From Planctomycetota bacterium (GTDB lineage Bacteria; Planctomycetota; SZUA-567): a stretch of 61,382 nucleotides of DNA. The notes beneath the pieces are model-generated. The model did no database searches and was not told the origin of the DNA. It was given only the letters and a program-made list of their open reading frames with translations. Position 1 is the stretch's first letter, and every line of letters begins with the position of its first letter. Positions 2 to 40,323 of the stretch are shown here, piece after piece. The stretch spans positions 1 through 61,382 of the forward strand of contig JAITQC010000152.1 of NCBI GenBank assembly GCA_031289115.1, written 5' to 3'. Made by a program: the position numbers and the translations under genes.

Positions 2-1183
2 TGGGCGGCGGAACAGGTTCTTACTTCCGGCGATTCCACCGTCCGGGTACCTGGAGTGGCGGACTTGCTCCAGAAAATACTCACCGGAGACACGGGGGCG
101 GTGGGTGGGGTGGCCCAGACTCTACCAACTCTTTCCGGGACCCCGCGTCTGGCCAAGGGGACCGGGGTGGTGGGAAGGGCCAACGCCCTTAAGGAAGCCG
201 AAGCCGAGGCGGCCCCCCCGGCCGCGAGGGGAACGGCCTTCATCCAGGCTGATCCGCGGCTGAACGCGGTTTTAGTCTGGGATTACGAAGACAATTTACC
301 CTTTATCCAAGAAATAGTGGAAAGCCTTGACCAACCCCTGCCGCTGGTGGAAATTCGGGCCGCCATCATTGACATTGAGGCGGGAAAAACCAGTGACCTG
401 GGGATTTCCCTGCGTTACCAGGGTGACAAGGGGCGCTGGGAAAACACCGCTGGCAGTAACCTGGGGAGTTCCTCCTCCCCAGTGGATTTTTCCAACATCA
501 GTGGCAATGGTTTCCAGTACGCCACCATTTACTCCTGGGGCCTGGACCAGTTGATGGCGCGGGTGAGCGCCATGGAGGAGGATGGCAACGCCAATATTCT
601 TAGCCGTCCCTCAGTTCTTACCCAGGACAATATCCAGGCCACTCTGGAGCACACCGAGACCTTTTATGTGCGTCTCCAGGGGGAACGCGAGGTGGATCTC
701 GCCGATATCACCACCGGCCTAACCCTCCGGGTGACCCCGCATGTGATTAACAACGGCGAGGGGGGAGTGCAGCTGGCGGTCTATATCACCGATGGCGACG
801 ACGCCAACTCCAATGTGGACGGCCTACCCCGGGTAAGGCAAAGTAGCATTTCCACCCAGGCCATAGTGCACGAGGGCGAGGCCCTGGTTATCGGGGGTTA
901 CTACAACGAGACCAGGCGCCTTACTGATACCGGGGTTCCCGGGTTGAAAAACATTCCGCTCTTTGGGGCGCTTTTCCGCAACAAGGAAAAGACCAACAAC
1001 AAGAGCGAGCGGTTGTTCGTCCTTTCCCCCCGGATCATCACCCCGGGACAATCGCCTTATGCGCCTGGTAGCGAATCCGAGCGTTCGCTAGATTATAGCC
1101 CCGCCCGCGACCTGCTACAGGGCCCCGCCATGCCGGATCCGGTCCCGGAGAAAAAGCCGGGACGCGGAGGAAAGAAAAGATAA
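2..1183 (+). CDS. sctC: Type III secretion outer-membrane secretin SctC (YscC/InvG family), C-terminal part. The frame is open to the window edge, so the 5' end is missing.
   Basis: Secretin C-domain signature NILSRPSVLTQDNIQATL...LVIGGYY...GVPGLKNIPLFGALFR...ERLFVLSPRII. No stop in this frame between nt 2 and the listed ATG at 56. Followed by sctD as in ysc/psc operons. Confidence 0.9.
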   Translation, partial: WAAEQVLTSGDSTVRVPGVADLLQKILTGDTGAVGGVAQTLPTLSGTPRLAKGTGVVGRANALKEAEAEAAPPAARGTAFIQADPRLNAVLVWDYEDNLPFIQEIVESLDQPLPLVEIRAAIIDIEAGKTSDLGISLRYQGDKGRWENTAGSNLGSSSSPVDFSNISGNGFQYATIYSWGLDQLMARVSAMEEDGNANILSRPSVLTQDNIQATLEHTETFYVRLQGEREVDLADITTGLTLRVTPHVINNGEGGVQLAVYITDGDDANSNVDGLPRVRQSSISTQAIVHEGEALVIGGYYNETRRLTDTGVPGLKNIPLFGALFRNKEKTNNKSERLFVLSPRIITPGQSPYAPGSESERSLDYSPARDLLQGPAMPDPVPEKKPGRGGKKR

Positions 1184-1208
1184 AAGCGCCAGTTTTCCGG
1201 CTTCGGCG

Positions 1209-2855
1209 TTGACCTCGCCCAATGCGTTTCGTCTTGGCCAAAGATTACCCCCGTCTTGGCTGGCTCAAGCTGTTTTTCATTTATCCCGTCCTGGAGAGGT
1301 ATCTCTGGTCTTTACCAATCCGAAAAGGAAGTCTGGCGTGGCTAACGTGCTGGTAAAACTACTGAGCGGAGCACAGAACGGGGCGGAGTTTGTCCTGGAA
1401 CCAGGTAACTACAGCCTGGGTTCCGGCGACGCCGACCTTGTTCTCGCCGACGCCCTGGTTCGCCCGCGGCACGCCCGGCTTATTATTGGGGAAGACGCCT
1501 GCGCCGTAGAACCCCTGGAGGGGGCGGAGGTATGGCTCTCCGGAGTGCTGGTGCGGGAAACCACACCGCTACCGCCTTACGCTGTCCTGACCCTTGGCGG
1601 CGTCAACCTCGCCCTGGGTCCGGAAGGCTTGTGGGAAAAGACGCCAGTGGTGGTGGCGCGTAGCGAGGCGCTTCCGCCCGTTCCTGTGGCGAATGGGGGA
1701 GCGGAAGCCACTCCGCCGCCTGCTAAAAGTGAAGCTCCCCTGCCACCGCCGATTCCGGAAACGCCTTTACTGGCGTCGCCCCGGCCCGGGCGGTCGCGCC
1801 TCGCCTGGTCCCTACTTTTACTACTCTTGACCCTGGTTGTCGTGGTGGCGGCGGGGTATTTTTATTTCCGCTACCGTCCCGCCCCGGATGAACCCCTGCA
1901 TGAAGCCCTGGCTTTGTTACAGGCCTCTGGCTTTGTCGCCATTCCTAACGCCACCACCACCTCCGTCCCCCCGGGGACAGTGGCATTGTCTCGTAACCCG
2001 GCGGGAAGACTGGAAGCCAGGGGCATCCTGCTTACGGCTGGGGAGCGCCAAAAAGCCCTGGCTATTGTCGCGGGCGTGGAAGAGGTGGTAGCGACCCGGC
2101 TCCTGACCCTGGAGACAGAGGTGGCTAAACTGGCTGGCCCGGAGGGCCTTGGCAAGTTTCCCGGCGTCAGCTTGGCTACCGAACCCGGGCGCTTTTCCGC
2201 TTTTCTCAAAGGGTTGGTGGATCGGCCGGAAGACAGCCTGAATGTCTACCGCCTGGTCCGCGAACGTCTCCACCCGCAGATTAGTATCCGCCGCCAACTG
2301 GAATCCTGGAGCGAGACCCGCCGCGAAGCGGAACTGGCGGCCAAGCGAGTGGGAATACCGGGAGCACGTTTTGAACGCGGGCAGGACGGGGTGCGTCTTG
2401 ACGTCCAACCCTGGCCCGAGGCGGCGCAATTGACTGACTTGGCGGAAGAACTGCGGGACCGGCTGGGGGAGGATATGGCAGCCCTTTTCCTGCCCGCCCT
2501 GACGCCCTTGCCGGAGACGCAGGATGAGGTGGCTTTTTTTCCTGAAGCGGACTTCTTCCCGGAGGTGGAGGTGAGGGCGCCCGTGGTTCAGGAAGCGCCG
2601 CCGCCAAGCGAAACAAACGGGTTTACGGATGACAGCGGCGTCTTAGCCGCGACGGCGGAAGGCGCCACGGTGCCGGAGACCATCCTCACGGTGAGCCGCA
2701 TAACCCCAAAGGGTTTTTATGACCAAGCGCAAGAGTTTCACAGTATTGGCGACTATTTGGCACCTGACTTACGGCTAGTCGGCACTTGGCGGCATGGCGT
2801 GGTGCTGGCCCGGGGTGACGAGACAATCTTACTGATGGCGGTAGCGGGCAACTAA
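1209..2855 (+). CDS. sctD: T3SS inner-membrane ring protein SctD (YscD/PrgH-like) with an FHA-like N-terminal domain
   Basis: N-terminal FHA-like segment (VLVKLLSGAQNGAEFVLEPGNYSLGSGDADLVL...RHARL). Pro-rich linker and a single TM (LAWSLLLLLLTLVVVVAAGYFYF), then a large periplasmic part. Sits right after sctC. The listed start is TTG 1209. In-frame GTG 1338, preceded by AAGGAAG, is the more plausible start. Confidence 0.75.
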   Translation: MTSPNAFRLGQRLPPSWLAQAVFHLSRPGEVSLVFTNPKRKSGVANVLVKLLSGAQNGAEFVLEPGNYSLGSGDADLVLADALVRPRHARLIIGEDACAVEPLEGAEVWLSGVLVRETTPLPPYAVLTLGGVNLALGPEGLWEKTPVVVARSEALPPVPVANGGAEATPPPAKSEAPLPPPIPETPLLASPRPGRSRLAWSLLLLLLTLVVVVAAGYFYFRYRPAPDEPLHEALALLQASGFVAIPNATTTSVPPGTVALSRNPAGRLEARGILLTAGERQKALAIVAGVEEVVATRLLTLETEVAKLAGPEGLGKFPGVSLATEPGRFSAFLKGLVDRPEDSLNVYRLVRERLHPQISIRRQLESWSETRREAELAAKRVGIPGARFERGQDGVRLDVQPWPEAAQLTDLAEELRDRLGEDMAALFLPALTPLPETQDEVAFFPEADFFPEVEVRAPVVQEAPPPSETNGFTDDSGVLAATAEGATVPETILTVSRITPKGFYDQAQEFHSIGDYLAPDLRLVGTWRHGVVLARGDETILLMAVAGN

Positions 2856-2869
2856 ATTTATTATTTATA

Positions 2870-2897
2870 TTGACAATATATTTATTATTATTACAAT
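2870..2897 (+). promoter_or_regulatory. Near-consensus sigma70-type promoter (TTGACA-N16-TACAAT) in the AT-rich sctD/needle-operon intergenic island
   Basis: TTGACA at 2870-2875 and TACAAT at 2892-2897. A 15-nt perfect palindrome TATATTGACAATATA (2866-2880) overlaps the -35 box. About 50 nt here are nearly pure A/T in a ~60% GC context. Confidence 0.5.
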
Positions 2898-2944
2898 ATT
2901 TTCCTAGGCGAGGTTTTTCCAGGACTGGCGGGGGAGGTAAGGCC

Positions 2945-3184
2945 ATGGGACTAGAAACAGACATATTGGCAGACGAGTGGAGTCCGCTATCTTTATTGGC
3001 TGCCAATGACGCCGCTGGCTGGCGTACGCTACTGGATGTAATGCAGCAACGCCGGGCGGATTTTAAAACCCAGCTTGACCGAGGAGTCAGCCAGAGCGAG
3101 TTTAAGCAAGGCACGGCCTTGCTGGAAAGTTATGATGCAGCCTTAAAAGGACTGGAACTGGCGTGGAGTCGACGCCATTCCTGA
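2945..3184 (+). CDS. Small helical protein, putative needle co-chaperone (YscE/PscE-like by position)
   Basis: 79 aa from ATG 2945, preceded by GGGAGGTAAGG. Immediately upstream of the needle gene, in the same position as yscE/pscE. Sequence similarity not verified. Confidence 0.4.
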   Translation: MGLETDILADEWSPLSLLAANDAAGWRTLLDVMQQRRADFKTQLDRGVSQSEFKQGTALLESYDAALKGLELAWSRRHS

Positions 3185-3212
3185 ATGGTCTACTTAAAGG
3201 AGGTGAAAAGAC

Positions 3213-3437
3213 ATGGACTTAAATATTCGTAACAGTGTGCTTAATAAAGGCCTTAATTCGATAGACGACACGCAGTCCAATATCGCCAAGGCGCTTGAGG
3301 GAAAAGAAACGCTGACCCAGACGGAATATATCCACCTGCAGCAGGACGTGCAGGCCTACACCAACATGATCTCCCTGATGTCCAATATCCTCAAGGGGCT
3401 TTCGGACACCGACAAGGAAGTTATCCGTAACACCTGA
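3213..3437 (+). CDS. sctF: T3SS needle filament protein SctF (YscF/PrgI/MxiH family)
   Basis: 74 aa helix-turn-helix-sized protein. The C-terminal pattern LQQDVQAYTNMISLMSNILKGLSDTDKEVIRN resembles needle subunit C-termini. AGGAGG SD upstream. Flanked by chaperone-like ORFs. Confidence 0.8.
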   Translation: MDLNIRNSVLNKGLNSIDDTQSNIAKALEGKETLTQTEYIHLQQDVQAYTNMISLMSNILKGLSDTDKEVIRNT

Positions 3438-3465
3438 CCACTCTGGCGTGAGAGAGGAGATAAGC

Positions 3466-3852
3466 ATGGCCTTGTCCCAAGTGGATCGTAGTCTTTTGGC
3501 GCGCATTGGCTTTTTCCTCGCCCGGGACGGCGAGGTGCCGGAGGCGGAAAAACTTTTCCAGGGTTTAGCCGCTTCTGACCCGGCCAAGGATGGCCCGGTG
3601 GTTGGACTGGCGCTTTGCAGCATTATCAAGGGTCGTTTCGAAGACGCCATAAGTAAGCTAGACCAACGTCTAGAAATTGGTAGCGTCATCGGCTCCGCCC
3701 TTTCCCTCTACAAACTGGTGGCCTTGGGTATGTCAGGCCGCCTTTCCGAAGCGCGCCAGCTTAAAATAGAGATGCAGGAAAAGAACTGGGGCGAGGCAGT
3801 GGGGCTAGCGGAAACCCTCCTGGTTGACCTGGAAAAGCGGCAGCCATCCTAA
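3466..3852 (+). CDS. TPR-like needle chaperone (YscG/PscG-like)
   Basis: About 128 aa from ATG 3466 (SD GAGAGGAG). TPR-like helices (EAEKLFQGLAASDPAKDGPVVGLALCSIIKGRFEDAISKL). Sits directly after sctF, as yscG does. Confidence 0.5.
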   Translation: MALSQVDRSLLARIGFFLARDGEVPEAEKLFQGLAASDPAKDGPVVGLALCSIIKGRFEDAISKLDQRLEIGSVIGSALSLYKLVALGMSGRLSEARQLKIEMQEKNWGEAVGLAETLLVDLEKRQPS

Positions 3853-3960
3853 GTGGCTGTAACGGGGGTAGGGGAAAGCTAGCCGAGGAAATGGGGACGA
3901 GGCGGTAACAACGCCCCCCAGGCCCTGGTTTTTTTAGCAGTGTTTTTCGGAGGAACTACC

Positions 3961-4395
3961 ATGAGTCTAGGCATAGATCCCGCCAGTCAACAGGCTTTGC
4001 AAAAAACTAGCGTTGAAGCCACGCCTTCGGCCGGAGCGGCGAGTAAGACACCTGACGCGGCCGGTAGCGGTGAAGTCGAGCGGTTCCAGGCCGCCATGCG
4101 GCCTCCCGAGGCGCAACTAGCTACTAACCAACCCCCGGCGGCGGTGCCACCGGTGGCGGCGCCGGGAAGCGACCTCTCGGTTGGCGACCGTATAATCCAG
4201 GGGATAAGCCGGGTCAGTGACAAGATCCAGACCGACCGGGCGGCGGCGCTCGAGACCATTGGCAAAAATGACCTTACCCAGGCTGACCTCCTCAAGGCCA
4301 ACTTCTCCATGATGGAATCCAGTAACCTGGTGTCCCTGACCAGCAAGGTGGGGGAAAAAATCAGCCAGGGCTTGAAAACACTGCAACAGGGATGA
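3961..4395 (+). CDS. sctI: T3SS inner rod protein SctI (YscI/PrgJ-like)
   Basis: ATG 3961 is preceded by GGAGGAACTACC. Disordered Ala/Pro-rich N-terminus and a conserved-looking C-terminus (LTQADLLKANFSMMESSNLVSLTSKVGEKISQGLKTLQQ). Located before sctJ. Confidence 0.65.
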   Translation: MSLGIDPASQQALQKTSVEATPSAGAASKTPDAAGSGEVERFQAAMRPPEAQLATNQPPAAVPPVAAPGSDLSVGDRIIQGISRVSDKIQTDRAAALETIGKNDLTQADLLKANFSMMESSNLVSLTSKVGEKISQGLKTLQQG

Positions 4396-4404
4396 GGTGA
4401 AGCC

Positions 4405-5154
4405 GTGCTGCGTTCGCTTGCCACCACTGTTTTAGGGTTGATGCTTGGTTTGCTTTTAGCCGGCTGTCAGACCCAGCTTTTCGGCAACCTTAGCGAGAGC
4501 GAGGCCAACGCTGTCCTGGCCGCCCTCCTGGACGCTTCGCTTTCCGCCGAGAAGCGGCTAGGCGAAGAGAACACCTTCGCTGTTTTTGTCGAGGCGGACG
4601 AGTTTGCCCAGGCGGTGCGGGTGGTTGAAGACCAAGCCCTGCCGGGCCGGCGTTACGACGACATGGGCAATGTTTTTGGCAAGGAAGCCATGTTCTCCAC
4701 CCCCTTGGAGGAAAAGGCGCGCTACCTTTACGCCATGCAGGAAGAGTTGGCCCACACGGTGGGGACTATTGACGGCGTGCTGCAGGCCAGGGTGCATTTG
4801 GTGCTGCAGGAAAAGGACCAGTTGGGCCGCGACGTTCAGACGCCCTCGGCGGCGGTGTTTGTCAAGTACCTGGATGACGAGCGCCACGACGCCACCACCC
4901 AGCGCCGGGAAATACGTCGCCTGGTGGCGGCGGCGATCGCCAACCTCGACGAGGAGCGGATAGTGGTGTCTTTCTTCCCTTCCCCGATCCGGAGGCTGCC
5001 ACCGGTCGCCTTGTCCTGGCGCTCCATCCTGGGAGTCAGGGTGGAGGAGGATTCCCTCACCCGGCTAGGAGTTTTTCTGGGTTGTCTCCTGCTTCTTGTC
5101 TTAGTGCTGCTTGGCCTCCTGGTGCGTAGCCATAGCCGGAAAAACCGGCCATGA
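4405..5154 (+). CDS. sctJ: T3SS inner-membrane ring lipoprotein SctJ (YscJ/PrgK/EscJ)
   Basis: Lipobox LLLAGC followed by QTQLFGNLSESEANAVLAALL, typical of the YscJ family. C-terminal TM (VFLGCLLLLVLVLLGLLV). Confidence 0.9.
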   Translation: MLRSLATTVLGLMLGLLLAGCQTQLFGNLSESEANAVLAALLDASLSAEKRLGEENTFAVFVEADEFAQAVRVVEDQALPGRRYDDMGNVFGKEAMFSTPLEEKARYLYAMQEELAHTVGTIDGVLQARVHLVLQEKDQLGRDVQTPSAAVFVKYLDDERHDATTQRREIRRLVAAAIANLDEERIVVSFFPSPIRRLPPVALSWRSILGVRVEEDSLTRLGVFLGCLLLLVLVLLGLLVRSHSRKNRP

Positions 5155-5840
5155 CTCCCGCTATCCTAGTGGCTTTTCACCGCTGGCAGCCCCTGCTTTG
5201 CGACCTGGCGAATGAAATTCACCCCGAACGTTGGCGTCGCCTAGGGTTAGCCGAGCCGGCGGTGGCAAGGCTACTTTCCTCCCCTCGGGCGCGTCAGCGC
5301 CTGTCCAGTAACCTCGCCTGGATTCTTCCCGAAGGGATTGGACAGGAAACCGCTTTGGCCGCCTGGAGGGACTGGGATGTTCCCCTGGCCCTGTTTGCGG
5401 TTCTCCCGGGAGAAAAACTTTGGCAGGCTGGGCTTAAACTGGGGGCGGCTCTGTTTCAGCCCGAGATAGCCCGGCTGGTTCGCCGTTCCGAAGTAGAGGC
5501 TTTCCGCGCCGGAGTGGGCGAGGAAATCCACCTGTTCGCCCTGCGCCAGGCTAGTCGCCTGTGGCGGGGTGGTAGCCTGCCGGGAGTGGAAGAGTTAAAG
5601 GGTGAACTCGCGCCCCGGGTGGCTAGCGTAGCCGCCCTGGCTCTAGGCGCCTGGCTAACTGACCTTCCTCCCGCCTTGGCGGTTCGGGTGGGATTAAAGT
5701 TACCACCCTCCGCCACGGATAATATGGCGCCAGTTGAAAACTGGGCTCCGGAGGTTCGCCAGGCCTGGACCAAGGCCTGGTCGGGTTTTCTCCCGGGGGT
5801 TAGCCAGGTCAGTCCCGTAGAGGGCCGAAAGGACGGATAA
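5151..5840 (+). CDS. sctK: T3SS sorting-platform protein SctK (YscK-like, by position)
   Basis: 229 aa. ATGA overlap with sctJ. Lies between sctJ and sctL exactly as yscK/pscK do. No strong motif recognised. Confidence 0.55.
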   Translation: MTPAILVAFHRWQPLLCDLANEIHPERWRRLGLAEPAVARLLSSPRARQRLSSNLAWILPEGIGQETALAAWRDWDVPLALFAVLPGEKLWQAGLKLGAALFQPEIARLVRRSEVEAFRAGVGEEIHLFALRQASRLWRGGSLPGVEELKGELAPRVASVAALALGAWLTDLPPALAVRVGLKLPPSATDNMAPVENWAPEVRQAWTKAWSGFLPGVSQVSPVEGRKDG

Positions 5841-5845
5841 CCAGC

Positions 5846-6472
5846 ATGGGCATGCTGTCGCTTTTTCCCGAAGGTGGACTGGCGCCGGATCCGGCGGACC
5901 GGATTATCCGGGCTGGCGACTACGCCCAGTTTGTCGCGGCGAGCGAGCTGTTGCAGGCTACCCGGCTCCGGGCGGAGGAGATTATTCGCCAGGCCGAGAC
6001 CGCGGCGGAGGAGTGCCGGAAAAAAGGCTACGCCGATGGAGTTGTGGAAGGCAAGGCGGAGTTGGCCGACCGTCTTTTCGAAGCCGTGTCTGGCTCAGTC
6101 GAGCAACTCTCGTCCATGGAAGGAACCCTGGTCAAGGTGGTGCTCCAGTCGTTAAGAACCATTCTTGGCCAGTTTGACCAAGGCGAACTGGTGACCCAGG
6201 TGGTGCGCCACGCTCTCCGGCTGGTGCGGGACGAAAAAAAGGTAATTCTCCGGGTGTCGAGTGGCGAGGCTGAAACAGTCGAAAAACGCCTGGCCGACCT
6301 GGTCAGCCATTATCCCGGCATGGGGCGGGTGGATGTTGTCGCTGACAGCGCCCTGGCCGCCGGGAGTTGTATTTTGGAAACGGAGATCGGGGTGGTTGAC
6401 GCCTCGCTCGAGCGCCAGCTCGCCAGTATCGAGGACAATTTCCGCCATCATCTGGAGGAGCCAAGGTCCTGA
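5846..6472 (+). CDS. sctL: T3SS stator / ATPase regulator SctL (YscL/HrpE family)
   Basis: 208 aa. N-terminal coiled coil ([24 protein letters not shown]). C-terminal [13 protein letters not shown]...[20 protein letters not shown] is typical of the FliH/SctL family. TGATG overlap with sctN. Confidence 0.8.
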
Positions 6473-7794
6473 TGGCGATTTTCGACCACCTTTCTGACGC
6501 CATGGCCCGCTCCCTTACCGAGTTTTCCCCGGTGGAAGTGCGTGGGCGCGTCACCCAGGTTCTTGGGACCATCATCCGGGCCGTGGTGCCGGGGGTCAAG
6601 GTGGGGGAACTGGTCACCCTCAAGTCGCCGCATGACCAGTCTTGGGAGTTAAAGGCGGAATGTGTTGGCTTCGCCCAGCAGGCGGCTATTCTCACTCCCC
6701 TAGGCGAGTTGTCCGGCATCAGCTCTTCCACCGTGGTCATTAGTTCCGGGCGTGTCCACACCATTCCGGTCACCCCAGCTCTTTTGGGGCGAGTGGTGGA
6801 TGGTTTGGGTAACCCCATTGACGGGTTACCGGCCCCGGTGCCGGAGGCGCAGTACCCAGTCTACGCCCCGCCGCCCAACCCCATGACCCGCCGCATAATT
6901 GACACCCCGCTGCCGCTGGGACTACGGGTGCTGGATGGTTTATTAACCTGTGGCGAAGGACAGCGCCTGGGTATTTTCGCCGCCGCGGGCGGCGGCAAGT
7001 CCACCCTGCTTTCCTGCCTGGTCAAAGGCGCGGCGGTGGATGTGGTGGTCCTAGCCCTTGTTGGTGAACGCGGACGCGAGGTGCGGGAATTCATCGAGCA
7101 CGATCTTGGCCCCGAGGGGATGAAGCGCTCAATTCTGGTGGTGGCGACCTCTGACCGCCCCTCCATGGAGCGCCTGAAGGCGAGTTACGTCGCCACCGCC
7201 ATCGCCGAGTATTTCCGCGACCAAGGCAAGAAAGTCCTCCTCCTGATGGATTCGGTGACCCGTTTTGGCCGGGCGCTACGGGAGATTGGGCTTGCCGCTG
7301 GCGAACCCCCGACCCGGCGCGGTTTTCCCCCCTCGGTTTTCAGTAGCCTTCCTAAACTGATGGAAAGGGCGGGAAACTCCGAAAAGGGTTCCATCACCGC
7401 CCTCTACACCGTGTTGGTCGAGGGTGACGATATGACCGAGCCTATTGCCGACGAGACCCGCTCGATCTTGGATGGGCACATTATTCTCTCGCGCCGGCTG
7501 GGTTCTGCCAACCACTATCCGGCGGTGGATGTCCTGGCCTCGGTCAGCCGCTGCATGACTTCCATTGTCAGCCGCGAACACCAGGTGGCGGCCAGCCGCT
7601 TCCGGCAACTCCTGGCGAAATACAACGAAGTCGAGCTTCTTCTCCAGATTGGCGAGTTCAAGAAAGGCCAGGACGCGCTGGCCGACGAGGCTATCGCCAA
7701 ATACGACCGCCTGAACACTTTTCTCTGCCAGGCGCAGAACGAGCGTAGCGACATGGCGACGGCGGTGGAAGAAATGCGGAAACTGGTTTCCTGA
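6472..7794 (+). CDS. sctN: T3SS ATPase SctN (YscN/InvC)
   Basis: Walker [12 protein letters not shown] and Walker [13 protein letters not shown]1/FliI-like architecture, 440 aa. Confidence 0.97.
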
Positions 7795-33702: not shown

Positions 33703-34602
33703 TTAACCCTGACCCGCCTGGGGGGGAGGCGCCTGGCGCCAGCGGAGCCGGGCCTGGAAAAACAGGCCGACCAAGAACATCGCCAGGGCCAGCCACTGTC
33801 CTAGCCGCAAACCCGGGAAAGCGCCAAAGCTATAGCGTAACGGGGTGTCGTCACGCCAGAATTCGATGAAGAAGCGGAACAGGGAATAGCTGAAGATAAA
33901 CCAGAGTACCACCTGTCCGTCGGGATGGGGCCATTTCTTTTCCGCTACGATTAGACTGATGGCGATCAGGAACAGGGCTAGGGCGGAAATGATCTGCGTC
34001 GGGTAAAGATGTATGGGGGGGGAGGTGTCAAGTGGATAACCCAAACTGACCAGAAGGGAGACCCATTCCTCCAGCCAGTTGGCAGCCATTTCATCCTGGT
34101 AGGCCATCGGATAGATCTCGGGGGGGAAGGTTATCCCCAGCGGGAAACCGGCTGGGGCGGGTTTACCCCAACAACAGCCGTTCATGAGGCAGCCGATACG
34201 CCCTAAGCCGATACCGGTAGCCAAGGCGGGGGCGTAGATATCGAGCATTTTGCCGACGGGTATTTTTTTCCAAACCAGATACAGCCACACCATAGGGATG
34301 GCGAGGACCAGTCCACCCTGGAGGGTCAGGCCGCCGTTCCACACGGCGAACCACTCGGCCGGACCGGAGGCGCCCTCATCCGGCAGGTAGTCGATGAGGA
34401 GGAAGGCGAGTCGAGCCCCAACCACACCGGCGATAATGGATATAAGACCGACATCCATGACACTGTCCCGGCTTATCCCCCGGCTCGCCGCTCGCCAGCA
34501 GGCGAGAGCGAGGGCGGCTAGGAACCCGAGCATCAGGAACAGGCCGTACCCATAAACCGGGATACCGTCACCGAGAGGAAGATGGAAAAGAATTCGTTGC
34601 AT
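33703..34602 (-). CDS. lgt: Prolipoprotein diacylglyceryl transferase Lgt
   Basis: Polytopic protein with IPVYGYGLFLMLGF..., GARLAF, GRIGCLMNGCCWG and PTQI motifs. Confidence 0.9.
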   Translation of the reverse strand: MQRILFHLPLGDGIPVYGYGLFLMLGFLAALALACWRAASRGISRDSVMDVGLISIIAGVVGARLAFLLIDYLPDEGASGPAEWFAVWNGGLTLQGGLVLAIPMVWLYLVWKKIPVGKMLDIYAPALATGIGLGRIGCLMNGCCWGKPAPAGFPLGITFPPEIYPMAYQDEMAANWLEEWVSLLVSLGYPLDTSPPIHLYPTQIISALALFLIAISLIVAEKKWPHPDGQVVLWFIFSYSLFRFFIEFWRDDTPLRYSFGAFPGLRLGQWLALAMFLVGLFFQARLRWRQAPPPQAGQG

Positions 34603-34795
34603 CGACTGTCCTTAGTCAAGCGGATGGCGGTTAGCCGCCGGCTGGGTGGAGAGCGTATCCCGGAAAACCGTTGCCCCGCGGCGTAAACACTTCGGGGGGA
34701 ACTGGTCTCCGGTGGAAAGACGGAGAGGAATATCCGGACAGCAACCATCCGGCCATTATCTATATTAGGAATCGGCCGGTGCCAGATGGCAAGCA

Positions 34796-35023
34796 CTATC
34801 CCAAGTGGCTATTAAACTCTTCCATTGTTTTCGCTTCCAGTGATTTAACTAGCATGGTTTCCAGTAAGTTAAAGTCTAGACAGCGTAGCACTTTTTCCTT
34901 GACTGGATTGGGTACCGGGCCAAGGCGGACAGCTAAAATGGTCATAATATTGTTTTGACTACCTTTCAACTTTCCTTTTAGTTCACTCTCAGCCTTGATA
35001 ATATCAATACTGGTAAGGGCCAT
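34796..35023 (-). CDS. Orphan RpnS-like (DUF4351-type C-terminal domain) small protein, 75 aa, about 1 tetrapeptide repeat
   Basis: MALTSIDIIKAESELKG-KLKG-SQNNIMTILAVRLGPVPNPVKEKVLRCLDFNLLETMLVKSLEAKTMEEFNSHLG. ATG 35023 is preceded by AAGAGGAAGGGAAAA. The longer listed ORF (to 35500) reads through the non-coding spacer. Confidence 0.6.
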   Translation of the reverse strand: MALTSIDIIKAESELKGKLKGSQNNIMTILAVRLGPVPNPVKEKVLRCLDFNLLETMLVKSLEAKTMEEFNSHLG

Positions 35024-35503
35024 TTTTCCCTTCCTCTTGAGCAAGTATTGGTGTAATAACGGCGTTTCCAAAGCCGCAAGGCCATCCGCCACGTTAACAA
35101 CTTCCAGTATATATCGGCTGGTTTTGGCGGTAAAGCGCTTTATCCGGAGGCCGGGGTTGGCGGTGGGGTCTGGGGCGCAAAGAGCGCCACCCCGCTGCCT
35201 TATACGCTGGTTGGTCAGTAATGTCCGTATCAGTGGGGGTGAGGATCCTGGGGTCAAAACCAACCCGGAAAAGTTGTCGTTATCCAGGATAGCGCTTGTC
35301 ACTAATAGTTGTCGTGTTTGGTAATGTAATGCCGATGGTGTTACGATAGGCACTGATAATCCTGGACCAGATGCTGACTTCTGATTTGCGATGGGAGAGA
35401 AAAGGACGAGCCAAACAGGAAGATTTGGGGTGAGCTGGAGGCAGGGGAAAAACCCTGCCTCCCGGGTCGGTTTCACGTTCCTCCGAACGGGGGGCGGCAA
35501 TGG

Positions 35504-35755
35504 CTAGCTCAAGTGGCTGGTAAACTCTTCCAGTGTTTTCGCTTTCACTGATTCCACCAGCATGGTTTTCAGTAAGTTAAAGTCTAGACAGTAGAGCACT
35601 TTTTCCTTGACCGGATTGGGTACCGGGCCAAAGCGGACAGCTAAAATAGTCATAATATTGTTTTGACTACCTTCCAACTTTCCTTTCAACTTTCCTTTCA
35701 ACCATCCTTTTAGTTCACTCTCAGCCTTGATAATATCAATACTGGTAAGGGCCAT
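35504..35755 (-). CDS. Orphan RpnS-like small protein, 83 aa, about 3 tetrapeptide repeats
   Basis: MALTSIDIIKAESELKG-WLKGKLKGKLEG-SQNNIMTILAVRFGPVPNPVKEKVLYCLDFNLL... Same SD+ATG context at 35755. Confidence 0.6.
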   Translation of the reverse strand: MALTSIDIIKAESELKGWLKGKLKGKLEGSQNNIMTILAVRFGPVPNPVKEKVLYCLDFNLLKTMLVESVKAKTLEEFTSHLS

Positions 35756-36235
35756 TTTTTCCCTTCCTCTTGAGCAAGTATTGGTGTAATAACTGCGTTT
35801 CCAAAGCTGCAAGGCCATCCGCCATGTTAACAACTTCCAGTATATATCGGCTGGTTTTGTCGGTAAAGCGCTTTATCCGGAGGCCGGGGTTGGCGGTGGG
35901 GTCTGGGGCGCAAAGAGCGCCACCCCGCTGCCTTATACGCTGGGTTGGCCAAGTCTGTTTGTATTTGTAGGGTCGAGGATCCCTGTTTTAAAATCAACCC
36001 GAAAAGTTGTCGTTATCCAGGATAGCGCTTGTCACCAATATTTGTCGTGTTTGGCGATGTAACGCTAGTGGTGTTACGGTAGACACTGGTAATCCTGGAC
36101 CAGATGCTGATTTACGTATTTACGGTGGGAAAGAAAAGGACGGGCCAAACAGGAAGATTTGGGGTGACCGGGAGGCAGGGGAAAAACCCCGCCTCCCGGA
36201 TTGTTTTCACGTTCCTTCAAACGGGGCGATAATGG

Positions 36236-36655
36236 CTAGCTCAAGTGGCTGGTAAACTCATCCATTGTTTTCGCTTCCAGTGATTTAACTAGTATGTTTT
36301 CCAGTAAGTTATAGTCTGGGCAGCGGATAATATTTTCCTTGACCGGAGTGGGTGCCGGGCCAAAGCGTACAGCTAAAACGGTCATAATATTGTTTTGTAT
36401 AGCTTCCAACTTTCCTTCTAACTTTCCTTCAACTTTTTCTTTCAACTCTCCATTCCACTTTCCCTCCAACCATTCTTCCAACCATACTTCCACCTTTCCT
36501 TTCACCTTCCCTTTCACCTCTCCTTCCACCTCTCCTTCCAGCCATTCTACCAACCATTCTTTCAACCATTCTTTCAACCATCCTTCTGTCCAGCCGTCCA
36601 ACCATCTTTTCAGTTCACTCTTAGCCTTGATATCGTCAATGCTGGTAGGAGCCAT
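36236..36655 (-). CDS. Orphan RpnS-like small protein, 139 aa, about 17 tetrapeptide repeats
   Basis: MAPTSIDDIKAKSELKR-(WLDG WTEG WLKE WLKE WLVE WLEG EVEG EVKG KVKG KVEV WLEE WLEG ... KLEG KLE)-AIQNNIMTVLAVRFGPAPTPVKEN... Confidence 0.6.
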   Translation of the reverse strand: MAPTSIDDIKAKSELKRWLDGWTEGWLKEWLKEWLVEWLEGEVEGEVKGKVKGKVEVWLEEWLEGKWNGELKEKVEGKLEGKLEAIQNNIMTVLAVRFGPAPTPVKENIIRCPDYNLLENILVKSLEAKTMDEFTSHLS

Positions 36656-37138
36656 TTTTTTCCTTTCTCTTGAGCAAGTATAGGTGTAATAACGGCGTTT
36701 CTAAAACCTCAAGGCCACCCGCCACGTTGACAACCTCCAGTATATATCGGCCGGTTTTGGCGGTAAAGCGCTTTATCCGGAGGCCGGAGTTGGCGGTGGG
36801 ATAAGGGGCGGATAAGATCGCCACCCAGCTGCTTTATACGCCGAGTTGGTCAGTAATGTCCGTATCAGTGAGGTTGAGGATCCCGGTTTTAAAATCAACC
36901 CGAAAAAGTTGTCGTTATCCAGAATAGCGCTTGTCACTAAAAGTTGTCGTGTTTGGTAATGTAATGCCGGTGGTGTTACGATAGGCACTGATAATCCTGG
37001 ACCAGGTGCTGACTTCTGATTTGCGGCGGGAGAGAAAAGAACGGGCCAAACAGGAAGATTTGGGGTGAGCGGAAGGCAGGGGAAAAACCCCGCTTCCCGG
37101 GTCGGTTTCACGTTCCTTCAAACGGGGGGCGGTAAGCC

Positions 37139-37510
37139 CTAGCTTAAGTGGCTGTTAAACTCTTCCATTGTTTTCGCTTCTGCTGATTTCACCAGCATGG
37201 TTTCTAGTAAGTTAAAGTCGAGACAGCGGAGTACTTTTTCCTTGACCGGAATGGGTGGCGGGCCAAAGCGGACAGCTAAAACGGTCATAATACTGTTTTG
37301 TGTAGATCTCAACTTTTCTTCAACTCTTTCTTCCAACCTTGCTTTCAACCTTTCTTTCAACCTTCCTTCCAACTTTTCTTCCAACCTTCCTTCCAACCAT
37401 TCTTTCAACCATATTTTTACCCTTACTTTTACAAAACCTTCTACAAAACCTTGTACAAAACCTTTCATGTTACTCTCAGCCTTGATATCGTCAATGCTGG
37501 TAGGAGCCAT
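37139..37510 (-). CDS. Orphan RpnS-like small protein, 123 aa, about 13 tetrapeptide repeats
   Basis: MAPTSIDDIKAESNMKG-(FVQG FVEG FVKV RVKI WLKE WLEG RLEE KLEG RLKE RLKA RLEE RVEE KLR)-STQNSIMTVLAVRFGPPPIPVKEKVLRCLDFNLLETMLVKS... ATG 37510 has the same SD context. Confidence 0.6.
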   Translation of the reverse strand: MAPTSIDDIKAESNMKGFVQGFVEGFVKVRVKIWLKEWLEGRLEEKLEGRLKERLKARLEERVEEKLRSTQNSIMTVLAVRFGPPPIPVKEKVLRCLDFNLLETMLVKSAEAKTMEEFNSHLS

Positions 37511-37993
37511 TTTTTCCCTTCCTCTTGAGCAAGTATTGGTGTAATAACGGCGCTTCCAAAGCTGCAAGGCCATCCGCCACGTTAACAACTTCCAGTATAT
37601 ATCGGCTGGTTTTGGCGGTAAAGTGCTTTATCCGGAGACCGGGGTTGGCGATGGGGTCTGGGGCGCAAAGAGCTCCACACCGCTGCCTTATACGCTGGAT
37701 TGGTCAGTAATGTCCGTATCAGTGGGGTAGCGGATTACTGTGTTAAAACCAACCCGGAAAAGTTGTCGTTATCCAGGATAGCGCTTGTCACTAATAGTTG
37801 TCGTGTTTGGTAATGTAATGCCGGTGGTGTTACGATAGACACTGATAATCCTGGACCAGATGCTGATTTACGTATTTACGGTGGGAAAGAAAAGGACGGG
37901 CCAAACAGGAAGATTTGGGGAGACCGGGAGGCAGGGGAAAAACCCCGCCTCCCGGGTTGTTTTCACGTTCCTCCGAACGGGGGGTGGCAAGGG

Positions 37994-38257
37994 CTAGCTC
38001 AAGTGGCTGGTAAATTCTTCCACTGTTTCCGCTTCCAATGATTTAACTAGCATGGTTTCCAGTAAGTTAAAGTCTAGACAGTAGAACACTTTTTCCTTGA
38101 CCGGAATGGGTACCGGGCCAAAGCGGAAAGCTAAAACGGTCATAATGTTGTTTTGTAAAGTTTCCAGCTTTCCTTCCAGCTTTCCTTCCAGCTTTCCTTT
38201 CAACTTTCCTTTCAATTCACTCTTAGTCTTGATATCGTCAATGCTGGTAGCGGACAT
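37994..38257 (-). CDS. Putative intragenic RpnS-like product (87 aa) translated from an internal start of the rpn gene
   Basis: In-frame ATG 38257 is preceded by CAGGAGGAAGGAAAGAAA (strong SD). The product MSATSIDDIKTKSELKG-KLKGKLEGKLEGKLE-TLQNNIMTVLAFRFGPVPIPVKEKVFYCLDFNLL... is collinear with the four orphan ORFs. Confidence 0.5.
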   Translation of the reverse strand: MSATSIDDIKTKSELKGKLKGKLEGKLEGKLETLQNNIMTVLAFRFGPVPIPVKEKVFYCLDFNLLETMLVKSLEAETVEEFTSHLS

Positions 38258-39022
38258 TTTCTTTCCTTCCTCCTGACCAAGTATTGGTATAAAAAACAGC
38301 TTTTCCAAAGCATCAATGCCACCTGCCACGTTGACAACATCCAGTATATATCGGCTGATTTTGGCGGTAAAGCTTTTTATCCGGGAATCAGTTTTGGCCG
38401 AGGCCATGATATTCCCCAACTGGGCAAGGGATTCATTATCCATGGGTGTCTCCAGGCCGTAAGTCTTTAACAGGAGCAAAATTGACTGCAGGAAGGGATG
38501 CCCCTTGCCGAGTAAAACCGGGGTACGAGTCAAATCAACAAACTGATACGGTAAATTGAGAATCCCATTGTCAAAACCAGGAAGAAGTTTACCCCACAAT
38601 CCGCTAATCCCGGGAGGCGCTTTCCAAAGCGCTTTACCGTGGTAGAGGGTAATCACGATGGGATAGGGAAGGGTTTGCGAATATCCTCTTTGGTCTGTAT
38701 CATTCATGTAGTCCACTGATTTGTTGATTGTGTAATGGATATTTCGCAGGCTCATCATGTAGTCTACAGTTGACTGATGTTCAAGAAATATGAATATTGG
38801 TGTGTCGTTACGTAATTGTCCTATATAACAGATGTCTCCTCTCACTTCGATCAAGTCATCGTTAATTATGCACATACTTGCCAATTGAAATGAATCCAAC
38901 TTGACACCATCTACCAGCCAGCTGGGAAGGTAGTGCTCCACCAGGCCCCGGAAAATATCGGGGTAGGCAAAAAAACTCCGCGCCAGACGGTCATGCGGTT
39001 GGTAAATCGAGGTACCACGCAT
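37994..39022 (-). CDS. Full-length Rpn/YhgA-like recombination-promoting PD-(D/E)XK nuclease (putative transposase_31 family) with a DUF4351-type C-terminal domain
   Basis: N-terminal PHDRLARSFFAYPDIFRGLVEHYLP, a nuclease core ...GDICYIG...IFIFLEHQST..., and LPYPIVITLYHG. These align by eye with E. coli RpnA (PHDALFKLFL..., YCLIEHQST, LPMVVPLLFYHG). ATG 39022 lies 6 nt after AGGAG. The 5' two-thirds is clearly AT-richer than its surroundings. Confidence 0.88.
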   Translation of the reverse strand: MRGTSIYQPHDRLARSFFAYPDIFRGLVEHYLPSWLVDGVKLDSFQLASMCIINDDLIEVRGDICYIGQLRNDTPIFIFLEHQSTVDYMMSLRNIHYTINKSVDYMNDTDQRGYSQTLPYPIVITLYHGKALWKAPPGISGLWGKLLPGFDNGILNLPYQFVDLTRTPVLLGKGHPFLQSILLLLKTYGLETPMDNESLAQLGNIMASAKTDSRIKSFTAKISRYILDVVNVAGGIDALEKLFFIPILGQEEGKKMSATSIDDIKTKSELKGKLKGKLEGKLEGKLETLQNNIMTVLAFRFGPVPIPVKEKVFYCLDFNLLETMLVKSLEAETVEEFTSHLS

Positions 39023-39513
39023 TTTCATTCTCCTGTTCATAGAGATAGCTATATATAAATTACAAAAGCTGGATAGCTCCAATAATATGAACCTTTTTAG
39101 AGATGTCAATATATAATCCAAAAAATATTGGCAGGTGGCAACAACATCTTGGCTTGAGGAATGGGATCGCTAGGCTGAGACGCTACTGGCGCCGGAATGT
39201 TTGCCAAGGAAGGATGGTCGTGCCGCCCTAGGTGGCGGCGTGCCCCGCGACGGGTTTTAGCCTGGGTTGGCGCTAGCGTTCTGACGGAGGAGATGCGGGC
39301 GGGGGGAGAAGAGTCAACCTCGGCGGGCTGGGTAAAAGCGCTGCGGGGTTAAGCGATAAGTAGCTGCAACCAATTGAGTGGGGGCGCTATACATTTTAAG
39401 CCGGGGTTTTCCGGCTGAAATTGTCACTTCAAACCGCTGGTATGGCCGATATTAAAGATAGGGCTTGCCCCGTTGATAAACGGGGTGACAAGGAAGATTA
39501 GGAGGACTGCCAA

Positions 39514-40323
39514 TTGGATGGCATGGCGGCAAACAACACGCTTGGGTTTATCCCGGCGATTTGTATGGGGATTATCCAGGGCCTTACCGAGTTTCTCCCG
39601 GTTTCATCCTCCGGACACCTGGCCTTGGCCGGGCATTTCGGTTTGGGAGTGGCGAATCCGCTGTTTTTCGACGCCTACCTCCATATGGCCACCTTACTGG
39701 TGGTTGTCCTGCATTTCCGCCAGGATCTTGCCGATTGTTGGCGCCGGGATCGCTGGGTAATTGGTTATATCCTGCTCGCCACCTTTCCTACCGCGGTTAT
39801 CGGTTTCACCTGCCAGGACTATTTTAAGGCGCTTCGCCAGTCGCCGACCATGATCGCCCTAGGCCTTCTGGTGATTTCCACCACCCTTTCCCTGGCTGAC
39901 CTGGTGCGGGGCGGATTCGCCCTTGAACGGCTAGGAAAATTCGGGGCTTTTTTCCTGGGCCTGTGCCAGGCTCTGGCGCTCGCCCCTGGTATTAGCCGCA
40001 GTGGTATCACCATCTCTGGTGCTATCCTCTGCGGGGTAGAACGGAAAAAGGCTTTCCGTTTCAGCTTCCTCCTAGCTATCCCCGCCATTGCCGGGGCGGT
40101 GGGGTCGGAAGGATTGGTTTTCTGGCAACAGGGGGGAGAGGGTGAGTTGTGGCGATTCCTCTTTTCCTGGGTAAACCTGGCGGCTTTCGCTGTCACGGCG
40201 GGAGTAGGCTACCTTTCCCTGCGTCTTCTCGGACGCCTGGTGGAAGGGGGTAAACTCTCTTGGTTCGCCGCCTATTGTTTCCTGTTGGCGATGCTGGTGC
40301 TGGTCTATTTCAATTACGCCTGA
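39514..40323 (+). CDS. uppP: Undecaprenyl-diphosphate phosphatase UppP (BacA)
   Basis: GIIQGLTEFLPVSSSGHL and PGISRSGITISG motifs. 8-TM protein, 269 aa. Confidence 0.93.
   Translation: MDGMAANNTLGFIPAICMGIIQGLTEFLPVSSSGHLALAGHFGLGVANPLFFDAYLHMATLLVVVLHFRQDLADCWRRDRWVIGYILLATFPTAVIGFTCQDYFKALRQSPTMIALGLLVISTTLSLADLVRGGFALERLGKFGAFFLGLCQALALAPGISRSGITISGAILCGVERKKAFRFSFLLAIPAIAGAVGSEGLVFWQQGGEGELWRFLFSWVNLAAFAVTAGVGYLSLRLLGRLVEGGKLSWFAAYCFLLAMLVLVYFNYA

Follow-up and report, generated by a model that had tools for sequence, protein, structure and literature searches.

Organization of the rpn locus

The DNA analyzed here, referred to below as the window, is a stretch of 61,382 nt from a Planctomycetota bacterium (GenBank assembly GCA_031289115.1, contig JAITQC010000152.1, positions 1 to 61,382 of the forward strand) and represents the whole of a single metagenomic contig. 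It contains rpnL, a gene for a nuclease of the Rpn/YhgA family with a second, in-frame start codon towards its 3' end, followed downstream on the same strand by four tandem units of 708-903 bp as delimited by multiple alignment. Each unit carries a short open reading frame (ORF) related to the 3' end of rpnL. The protein expected from the internal start is designated S0, and those encoded by the orphan ORFs of units 1 to 4 (U1 to U4) are designated S1 to S4; all coordinates are collected in Table 1. The long gene, the internal ATG with its Shine-Dalgarno (SD) sequence and 87-aa product, and the four direct units with ORFs of 75, 83, 139 and 123 aa collinear with that product had been described in an earlier note made from the letters of the sequence. 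All were found again in the present analysis: the long gene through its match to Transposase_31 and the alignment of its catalytic residues, the internal ATG at the same position, and the units by alignment and tblastn.

Table 1. Features of the rpn locus, in coordinates of the window
Feature	Coordinates	Strand	Remarks
rpnL, 342-aa Rpn/YhgA-like PD-(D/E)XK nuclease with C-terminal DUF4351-type domain	37994..39022	-	PF04754; catalytic residues
Promoter-like site upstream of rpn, TTGACA-16-TATTAT	39082..39109	-	strong, sigma-70-like, 11/12 consensus matches
S0, intragenic RpnS candidate, 87 aa	37994..38257	-	in-frame internal SD and ATG; 4 four-residue repeats, 12-nt repeats at 38162-38211 (Tandem Repeats Finder, TRF)
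Internal promoter-like site, TTTACC-17-TATACT	38343..38371	-	85 nt before the internal ATG; same site at the same offset in all four units
Unit 1	37139..37993	-	hairpin 37924-37955; spacer; leader ~37511-37655 (promoter-like site 37594-37622); S1 ORF 37139-37510, 123 aa, 13 repeats
Unit 2	36236..37138	-	hairpin 37070-37099 (compensatory A-U change); spacer; leader ~36656-36800 (promoter-like site 36739-36767); S2 ORF 36236-36655, 139 aa, 17 repeats
Unit 3	35504..36235	-	hairpin 36168-36199; spacer; leader ~35756-35900 (promoter-like site 35839-35867); S3 ORF 35504-35755, 83 aa, 3 repeats
Unit 4	34796..35503	-	hairpin 35437-35465; spacer; leader ~35024-35166 (promoter-like site 35106-35134); S4 ORF 34796-35023, 75 aa, 1 repeat
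Low-GC island housing the whole rpn locus	34603..39513	.	GC content ~46%, flanks ~60%; lgt and uppP are its neighbours

The long gene rpnL

The Pfam family Transposase_31 (PF04754) is matched by residues 8-188 of RpnL with an E-value of 8.8e-20 (71.6 bits for a cutoff of 21), and partial matches are obtained with the NCBIfam models RpnA and TIGR01784. The same Pfam family is present in 112 of the 112 database homologues of RpnL. The closest of these, at no more than 55% identity (P0001), originate from Planctomycetota metagenome-assembled genomes (MAGs) and are named Rpn family recombination-promoting nucleases by their sources. Pairwise alignment places D11, D63, E81, Q83 and R93 of RpnL opposite D11, D63, E82, Q84 and R94 of Escherichia coli RpnA, residues whose mutation abolishes or alters RpnA activity (Kingston et al. 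2017). The five RpnL residues are invariant or nearly so across the subfamily, while the identity between the nuclease cores of RpnL and RpnA amounts to only 26%. RpnL is, judging from these alignments, an Rpn nuclease with an intact nuclease core. Its start codon at 39022 is preceded at a distance of 7 nt by the SD sequence AGGAGA.

Two observations were made on the homologues. A Planctomycetota MAG protein that is 49% identical to RpnL (P0002) stops 15 residues past the conserved internal Met and is devoid of the C-terminal S domain; either truncation or recombination may have produced it. When the three closest homologues are compared, protein conservation is highest in a block that corresponds to RpnL residues 205-227 (~38342-38410), IMASAKTDSRIKSFTA...YIL. 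This block coincides with the DNA of the internal promoter-like site, and its conservation may reflect a double constraint on the sequence.

The internal start and the five short proteins

The internal ATG at 38257 is in frame with rpnL and is preceded by the sequence CAGGAGGAAGGAAAGAAA / AGGAGGAAGG / CAGGAGGAAGG; the corresponding Met is conserved across the RpnL subfamily. The four orphan proteins are collinear with S0 and 71-78% identical to it in the alignment, with tblastn E-values of 1e-33 to 1e-39, whereas the C-terminal domain of the nearest external homologue is about 41% identical. The leader, the SD sequence and the ATG are retained in every orphan, whose ORF is intact and ends at the same stop. 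S0 to S4 differ from each other only by point changes and by whole four-residue repeats of the KGKL, EGKL or EWLK type, which begin at residue 16 after the Met. The length differences among the five ORFs are all multiples of 12 nt, and the matching 12-nt tandem repeats were detected by TRF.

The earlier note had proposed that all five ORFs be compared with hidden Markov models (HMMs) of the Rpn and DUF4351 families. For the long ORF this comparison gave the clear match described above. For the short ones the direct Pfam scan stayed below threshold for DUF4351 (PF14261), with an E-value of 0.009 for S4 and no match for S0 to S3, and the relationship emerged from a profile of the five S proteins, which hhalign joined to that of DUF4351-type relatives with a probability of 99% (E = 3.4e-18). 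DUF4351 itself is matched by 14 of the 27 aligned relatives, the best at 2.4e-20. On this profile evidence, S0 to S4 are divergent DUF4351 domains. The AlphaFold model of S0 (mean predicted local distance difference test, pLDDT, 82) consists of a long helix that spans residues 4-46 and, after it, three short ones; that of S2 is of low confidence (pLDDT 63). RpnAS, the short form of RpnA, was not recovered when the PDB was searched by sequence and by profile with the proteins of the window. Gene callers disagree on the starts of the orphans, proposing 98 and 168 aa for S4.

Anatomy of the repeat units

Five-copy and four-copy families of direct repeats were detected at the locus by repeat finding, their starts lying 708/733, 732/733, 900-903 and 855 nt apart. 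The copies are 85-97% identical across hundreds of bases, a similarity far beyond chance. On the minus strand each unit is made of a hairpin, a spacer, a leader homologous to rpn and the short ORF, in that order. RpnL residues before ~208 are unmatched in all four units, which are therefore devoid of any nuclease domain, in agreement with the earlier note.

The hairpin is a 13-bp GC-rich structure, CCGGGAGGCGGGG-UUUUU-CCCCUGCCUCCCGG, located about 40 nt past the preceding stop. In the copy that follows S1 (37070-37099) it displays a compensatory double change, GGAGG to GGAAG on one arm and CCUCC to CCUUC on the other, which hints that the stem itself may be maintained. Another copy shows a change from G-U to A-U. 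The structure does not qualify as a classic intrinsic terminator, being without a U tract. An assignment of the hairpins to integron attC sites was likewise rejected, since neither an integrase nor a GTTRRRY core is present and the units show homology to each other over their whole length.

The spacer, of about 400 nt, is common only to the four units, with 85-92% identity between copies. It matches neither Pfam nor Rfam and contains no conserved ORF. A mobile element was rejected because terminal inverted repeats are lacking and the spacer occurs nowhere else in the window, and coding sequence because the frames are broken in two units and Pfam gives no hit. A 234-aa ORF that spans unit 4 (34796-35500) is probably spurious and results from read-through caused by a net 3-nt deletion in the leader; the part of it that lies in the spacer is without homologues and is interrupted in other units. 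The array ends about 12 nt past the S4 stop and no spacer is present there.

The leader and its promoter-like site

The leader comprises about 145 nt upstream of each orphan ATG, slightly more than the ~135 nt given in the earlier note, and is homologous to rpn codons ~208-255. As noted there, it includes the stretch RIKxFTAKxSRYILxVVNVAxG and the SD sequence. In the leader, the -10 element of the promoter-like site ends 82-85 nt before the ATG and is followed by the SD sequence; the promoter-like hexamers, the SD sequence and the ATG are unchanged in five copies out of five. In units 1-3 two 1-nt deletions place the former rpn frame out of phase with the S ORF, and this frame runs into a stop seven codons past the ATG. 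Unit 4 has undergone three 1-nt deletions in its leader and is back in frame. As the rpn frame is broken before the ATG in units 1-3, the conserved protein can be made there only from the orphan's own ATG.

The rpn genes of E. coli are reported to possess an internal transcription start from which a short and more abundant transcript, rpnS, is produced. Because the promoter-like site is conserved, because the leaders are largely out of frame and because an internal start exists in E. coli, the leader is better read as a putative duplicated rpnS promoter and 5' untranslated region (UTR) than as a homology arm for module swapping. Independent expression of the orphans is plausible.

Selection on the short ORFs

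Over the 67 non-repeat codons the pairwise ratios of nonsynonymous to synonymous rates (dN/dS) range from 0.26 to 0.71, and counts made against the consensus give an omega of about 0.5. The excess of synonymous changes is significant in a binomial test, both for all five copies (p = 0.004) and for the orphans only (p = 0.02). By these counts the short ORFs appear to be under moderate purifying selection.

Recombination between the units

The four units contain 33 parsimony-informative sites, which support all three 2+2 partitions (14, 12 and 7 sites) and do so in blocks. These sites form 10 runs where 22.2 would be expected; a count that low did not occur in any of 200,000 shuffles. The sites of the spacer and of the extreme 3' end pair U1 with U3 and U2 with U4; those between the ATG and a point just beyond the repeats pair U1 with U2 and U3 with U4. 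At its 5' end S0 is most similar to U1 and U2, in the middle of the C-terminal domain to U3, and at the end to U2. The block pattern implies that the units exchanged segments, with breakpoints that bracket the variable part, and such a mosaic indicates gene conversion.

As the stretch is a whole metagenomic contig, it may be asked whether a short-read assembler strung together strain variants of a single stand-alone gene, or misordered the units, since chimeric joins could mimic a mosaic and exact words of up to 83 nt are shared between units. Such words, which are the longest that the units have in common, are however shorter than a read, and the units differ in length and at 10-15% of their positions. 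Assemblers break at repeats of this type rather than concatenate alleles, the array joins the unique flanks cleanly at both ends, and comparable arrays are found in independent assemblies. Mis-assembly of the units is unlikely, and an array that owes its existence to the assembler is barely credible.

Another possibility is that the exchange is programmed and that the array serves as a dedicated generator of diversity for a defence toxin. The orphans, themselves expressed, would donate their repeat segment to rpn by frequent gene conversion, possibly triggered by RpnL, in the manner of pilS and pilE. The mosaic breakpoints that bracket the variable segment, the mosaic nature of S0 relative to the orphans and the conserved sequence on both sides of the variable core would all agree with such a switch, as would the published fusions of an rpn N-terminal region to a stand-alone rpnS gene (rpnSs) and the suggestion of the same authors that RpnL may be behind such events (Zhong et al. 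2023, PMC10400941). If true, a lineage could re-key its RpnL/RpnS pair, from 1 to 17 repeats, against phage counter-measures, which would amount to the logic of antigenic variation applied to an immune effector. The cassettes are nevertheless not silent, and with copies diverged by 10-15% exchange must be rare in evolutionary terms. In addition, three of the four leaders carry a frameshift, so that a crossover in the upstream part of such a leader, or a conversion tract including it, would inactivate rpn. Programmed switching is accordingly considered quite improbable.

The same facts bear on the idea, put forward in the earlier note, that the units form a recombination reservoir, which was based there on the ~135-nt upstream homology. 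The units did recombine and a role as a reservoir may still apply. The upstream homology makes a poor recombination arm, being out of frame in three of four units and carrying a conserved promoter-like site.

Genomic setting and relatives

The rpn locus lies in a low-GC island of about 4.9 kb, with uppP and ftsK on one side and lgt on the other; the flanking genes are housekeeping genes. No tRNA, integrase, terminal repeats or neighboring defence genes were found at the locus, Rfam gave no family match in 34000-40000, and there is no second rpn copy elsewhere in the 61-kb contig.

No relative was detected by the first genome scan, by either of the two metagenome scans or by the viral-contig scan, and S1 was present on no other contig searched. 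When 5.8 billion proteins were searched with the repeat-free S domain, only the proteins of the window itself were retrieved, and profile searches of the protein database with the S module found no close homologue beyond the contig. The full HMM search with the same domain retrieved 8,885 representative proteins. Among the best 150 of these matches, 81 contain 2-4 S modules, most of them without a nuclease domain, and about nine look like full-length Rpn proteins. Short proteins of 2-4 tandem DUF4351-like modules without nuclease are thus very common among the best S-domain matches (P0130-P0275), one of them (P0133) being an almost exact internal duplication; no paper discussing such multi-module short proteins was found in literature searches.

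Orphan S modules adjoin rpn genes in two other phyla. In a Gemmatimonadetes MAG (JAJEBS010000205, L006, positions 1156-7020) three S-like modules are fused in a 351-aa ORF, within an array that also contains three full-length rpn genes and, at 2602-3036, an ORF with an S module only; repeat numbers all differ among the four copies in which the four-residue repeats were counted. In the MAG of Halochromatium sp. A10 (L012; 209-852 and 4878-5246) a full rpn gene is followed, 2.1 kb downstream, by a 3' rpn fragment with fewer repeats, which retains about 70 codons ahead of the internal Met. Two shorter C-terminal fragments are found upstream of the full gene. Among 5,421 E. coli genomes each has one to four matching places (median 2), and the lengths of the matches vary by multiples of 12.

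Interpretation of the locus

The account of RpnL and RpnS given in the earlier note, with toxic long nuclease forms of anti-phage activity neutralised by short RpnS proteins from internal starts, proved accurate. According to Zhong et al. (2023) RpnL is blocked only by an RpnS of equal repeat number, the repeats consisting of one hydrophobic and three charged or Gly residues located 8-20 residues after the Met. Applied to the present locus, where RpnL has four repeats and no orphan does, the rule means that no orphan should silence the resident RpnL. The orphans would therefore not simply increase the dose of antitoxin, one of the roles initially suggested for them.

We consider it probable, with considerable room for doubt, that the locus is an RpnL/RpnS gene-within-a-gene of the toxin-antitoxin or defence type, accompanied by a four-copy array of stand-alone rpnSs genes of the ypaA/rpnESs kind, most likely acting as a standing pool of length variants. 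By virtue of its family membership RpnL would be a toxic nuclease restrained by S0 made from the internal start. Each orphan would probably be a small transcription unit of its own that produces a free RpnS length variant. Recombination inside the ORF could move a variant into the full-length rpn gene, as in the E. coli fusions, and such a transfer would alter the specificity of the toxin and of the antitoxin together. The array may have originated by one partial duplication giving rpn-spacer-leader-S, followed by amplification of the spacer-leader-S unit through unequal crossing-over and by diversification of the copies through slippage of the 12-nt repeats and gene conversion. The layout, in which rpn leads the array and the spacer is missing after S4, fits the two-step duplication and amplification.

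Several points weigh against this interpretation. The requirement for matching repeats was shown for E. coli RpnC only. The internal promoter-like site has only 9 of 12 consensus matches, in sequence that is also coding in rpn. The locus is matched by no PADLOC model, and the window is a single metagenomic contig. At the structural level, a Foldseek comparison of the S0 model with the PDB gave no match with E < 1 and did not match the RpnAS crystal structure, a small helical bundle whose long first helix dimerises, and hhalign to the 49-residue RpnAS sequence (7TH0) returned a probability of 3.6%. Finally, an omega of about 0.5 is a weak constraint, orphans free of stops have a 12% chance of arising under neutrality (p = 0.12), and the leader and the spacers are conserved as much as the ORFs or more (Jukes-Cantor, JC, distances of 0.03-0.17 against 0.12-0.17), a conservation that recent homogenization could explain without function.

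These last three points would be expected if the orphans were neutral leftovers of recombination, unequal or promoted by Rpn, at the repeat-rich end of a gene, dispensable and too young to have decayed. The ease with which rpnSs genes are gained and lost (Zhong et al. 2023) and the clearly truncated fragments of the Halochromatium MAG are in line with this explanation. Against neutrality stand the intact state of the four ORFs and of their starts, SD sequences and promoter-like hexamers at a divergence of 10-17%, the excess of synonymous changes and the compensatory double change in the hairpin; the E. coli counterpart is, moreover, expressed. Neutral debris is for these reasons judged unlikely, yet it deserves real consideration.

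The distinct repeat number of each orphan, together with the dependence of RpnS specificity on this number, also raises the question of whether the orphans act in trans, as antitoxins for other RpnL proteins with 1, 3, 13 or 17 repeats. Such proteins would be encoded by genomic paralogues or by incoming plasmid or phage copies, and the array, whose members appear independently expressible from their start signals, would be an anti-addiction or cross-protection set. This is very unlikely: the 61-kb contig contains no other rpn copy, no close homologue of the C-terminal domain was found among the 5.8 billion proteins, and the non-repeat parts of the orphans match the resident gene and not a foreign one.

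Five length variants of one RpnS (1, 3, 4, 13 and 17 repeats) stand side by side behind a single nuclease gene, with clear signs of exchange between them. The locus is thus a compact natural test bed for the same-repeat-number rule and for orphan-fed variation of a toxin gene. It also shows that the rpnSs phenomenon is not confined to Enterobacteria and that such genes can multiply into arrays. Taken with the large number of DUF4351 proteins that have several modules, the array suggests that free or multiplied RpnS modules may be a general, unstudied layer of Rpn biology.

Comparison with known systems

Among the closest known systems is the intragenic RpnL/RpnS toxin-antitoxin and anti-phage system (RpnA-E and RpnP2). 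The locus has in common with it an N-terminal nuclease of the PD-(D/E)XK (Transposase_31) type in which the D, D, E-x-Q and R residues are present. Further shared features are a ribosome-binding site and ATG within the gene that would yield a small C-terminal protein, and four-residue repeats, made of one hydrophobic residue with charged or Gly residues, that start 16 residues past the Met, inside the published range. The internal start and the position of the repeats are consistent with the RpnL/RpnS layout and the RpnS-like orphans that were first suggested for this DNA. On the other hand, there is no detectable sequence similarity to 7TH0 beyond the N-terminal motif, and the rpn locus described here lies outside any defence island.

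The arrangement itself had been thought to be undescribed, which overstated its novelty. Stand-alone rpnSs genes, rpnESs (= ypaA) and rpnCSs, were reported downstream of rpnE and rpnC by Zhong et al. (2023), each derived from its own upstream gene, and RpnESs is synthesized in E. coli. In some species the stand-alone RpnS is annotated DUF4351 (Zhong et al. 2023). In E. coli K-12 (L015, 11905-13002) ypaA/rpnESs starts 13 nt past the rpnE stop and has one extra 12-nt repeat. As at the present locus, it is a partial duplication of the 3' end of rpn, on the same strand and immediately downstream, the copy being most similar to the S part of the resident gene and differing from it in the number of 12-nt repeats. 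The differences concern the upstream region, the copy number and the repeats: the upstream homology of ypaA to rpnE is limited to the SD sequence, in contrast to a leader of about 145 nt with a promoter-like site here; E. coli has one copy and the window four, each set off by a spacer of about 400 nt with a hairpin; and ypaA has one repeat more than rpnE, whereas repeat numbers run here from 1 to 17. The S domain is of the DUF4351 type in the window, while the E. coli hits carry PF27070. The expansion and contraction of the 12-nt repeats, the reason for the existence of rpnSs genes and the possible part of RpnL in driving rearrangements are left open by Zhong et al. (2023).

Arrays of rpn genes are also known to arise by tandem direct duplication, events that RpnL is speculated to drive (Zhong et al. 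2023). In tandem rpn arrays and multi-module DUF4351 proteins, whole genes are duplicated or modules are fused in one polypeptide. The modules of the present locus are instead separate small genes with start signals of their own, placed behind a single nuclease gene.

The analogies drawn in the earlier note with the pilE/pilS system and with the orphan modules of Rhs and CdiA, the toxin of contact-dependent inhibition (CDI), hold only in outline and break down on the defining features. A tandem store of variant 3' modules beside one full-length expressed gene, conserved flanks around a variable core and exchange between copies are common to all of them. The pilS copies, however, lack a promoter, a ribosome-binding site and a start codon, whereas the present units keep an SD sequence, an ATG and a promoter-like site and are not silent in that sense. 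Rhs and CDI orphans consist of a toxin tip with its immunity gene, in contrast to units that contain only the antitoxin/oligomerization domain and no second gene. Finally, the variable element is here the repeat count and not novel sequence.

The locus is an enlarged version of the arrangement described in E. coli and not a new kind of system. What is new is the presence of four separate copies behind one nuclease gene, each with a promoter-like leader and a hairpin, the range of 1-17 repeats, and the recombination signal between the units.

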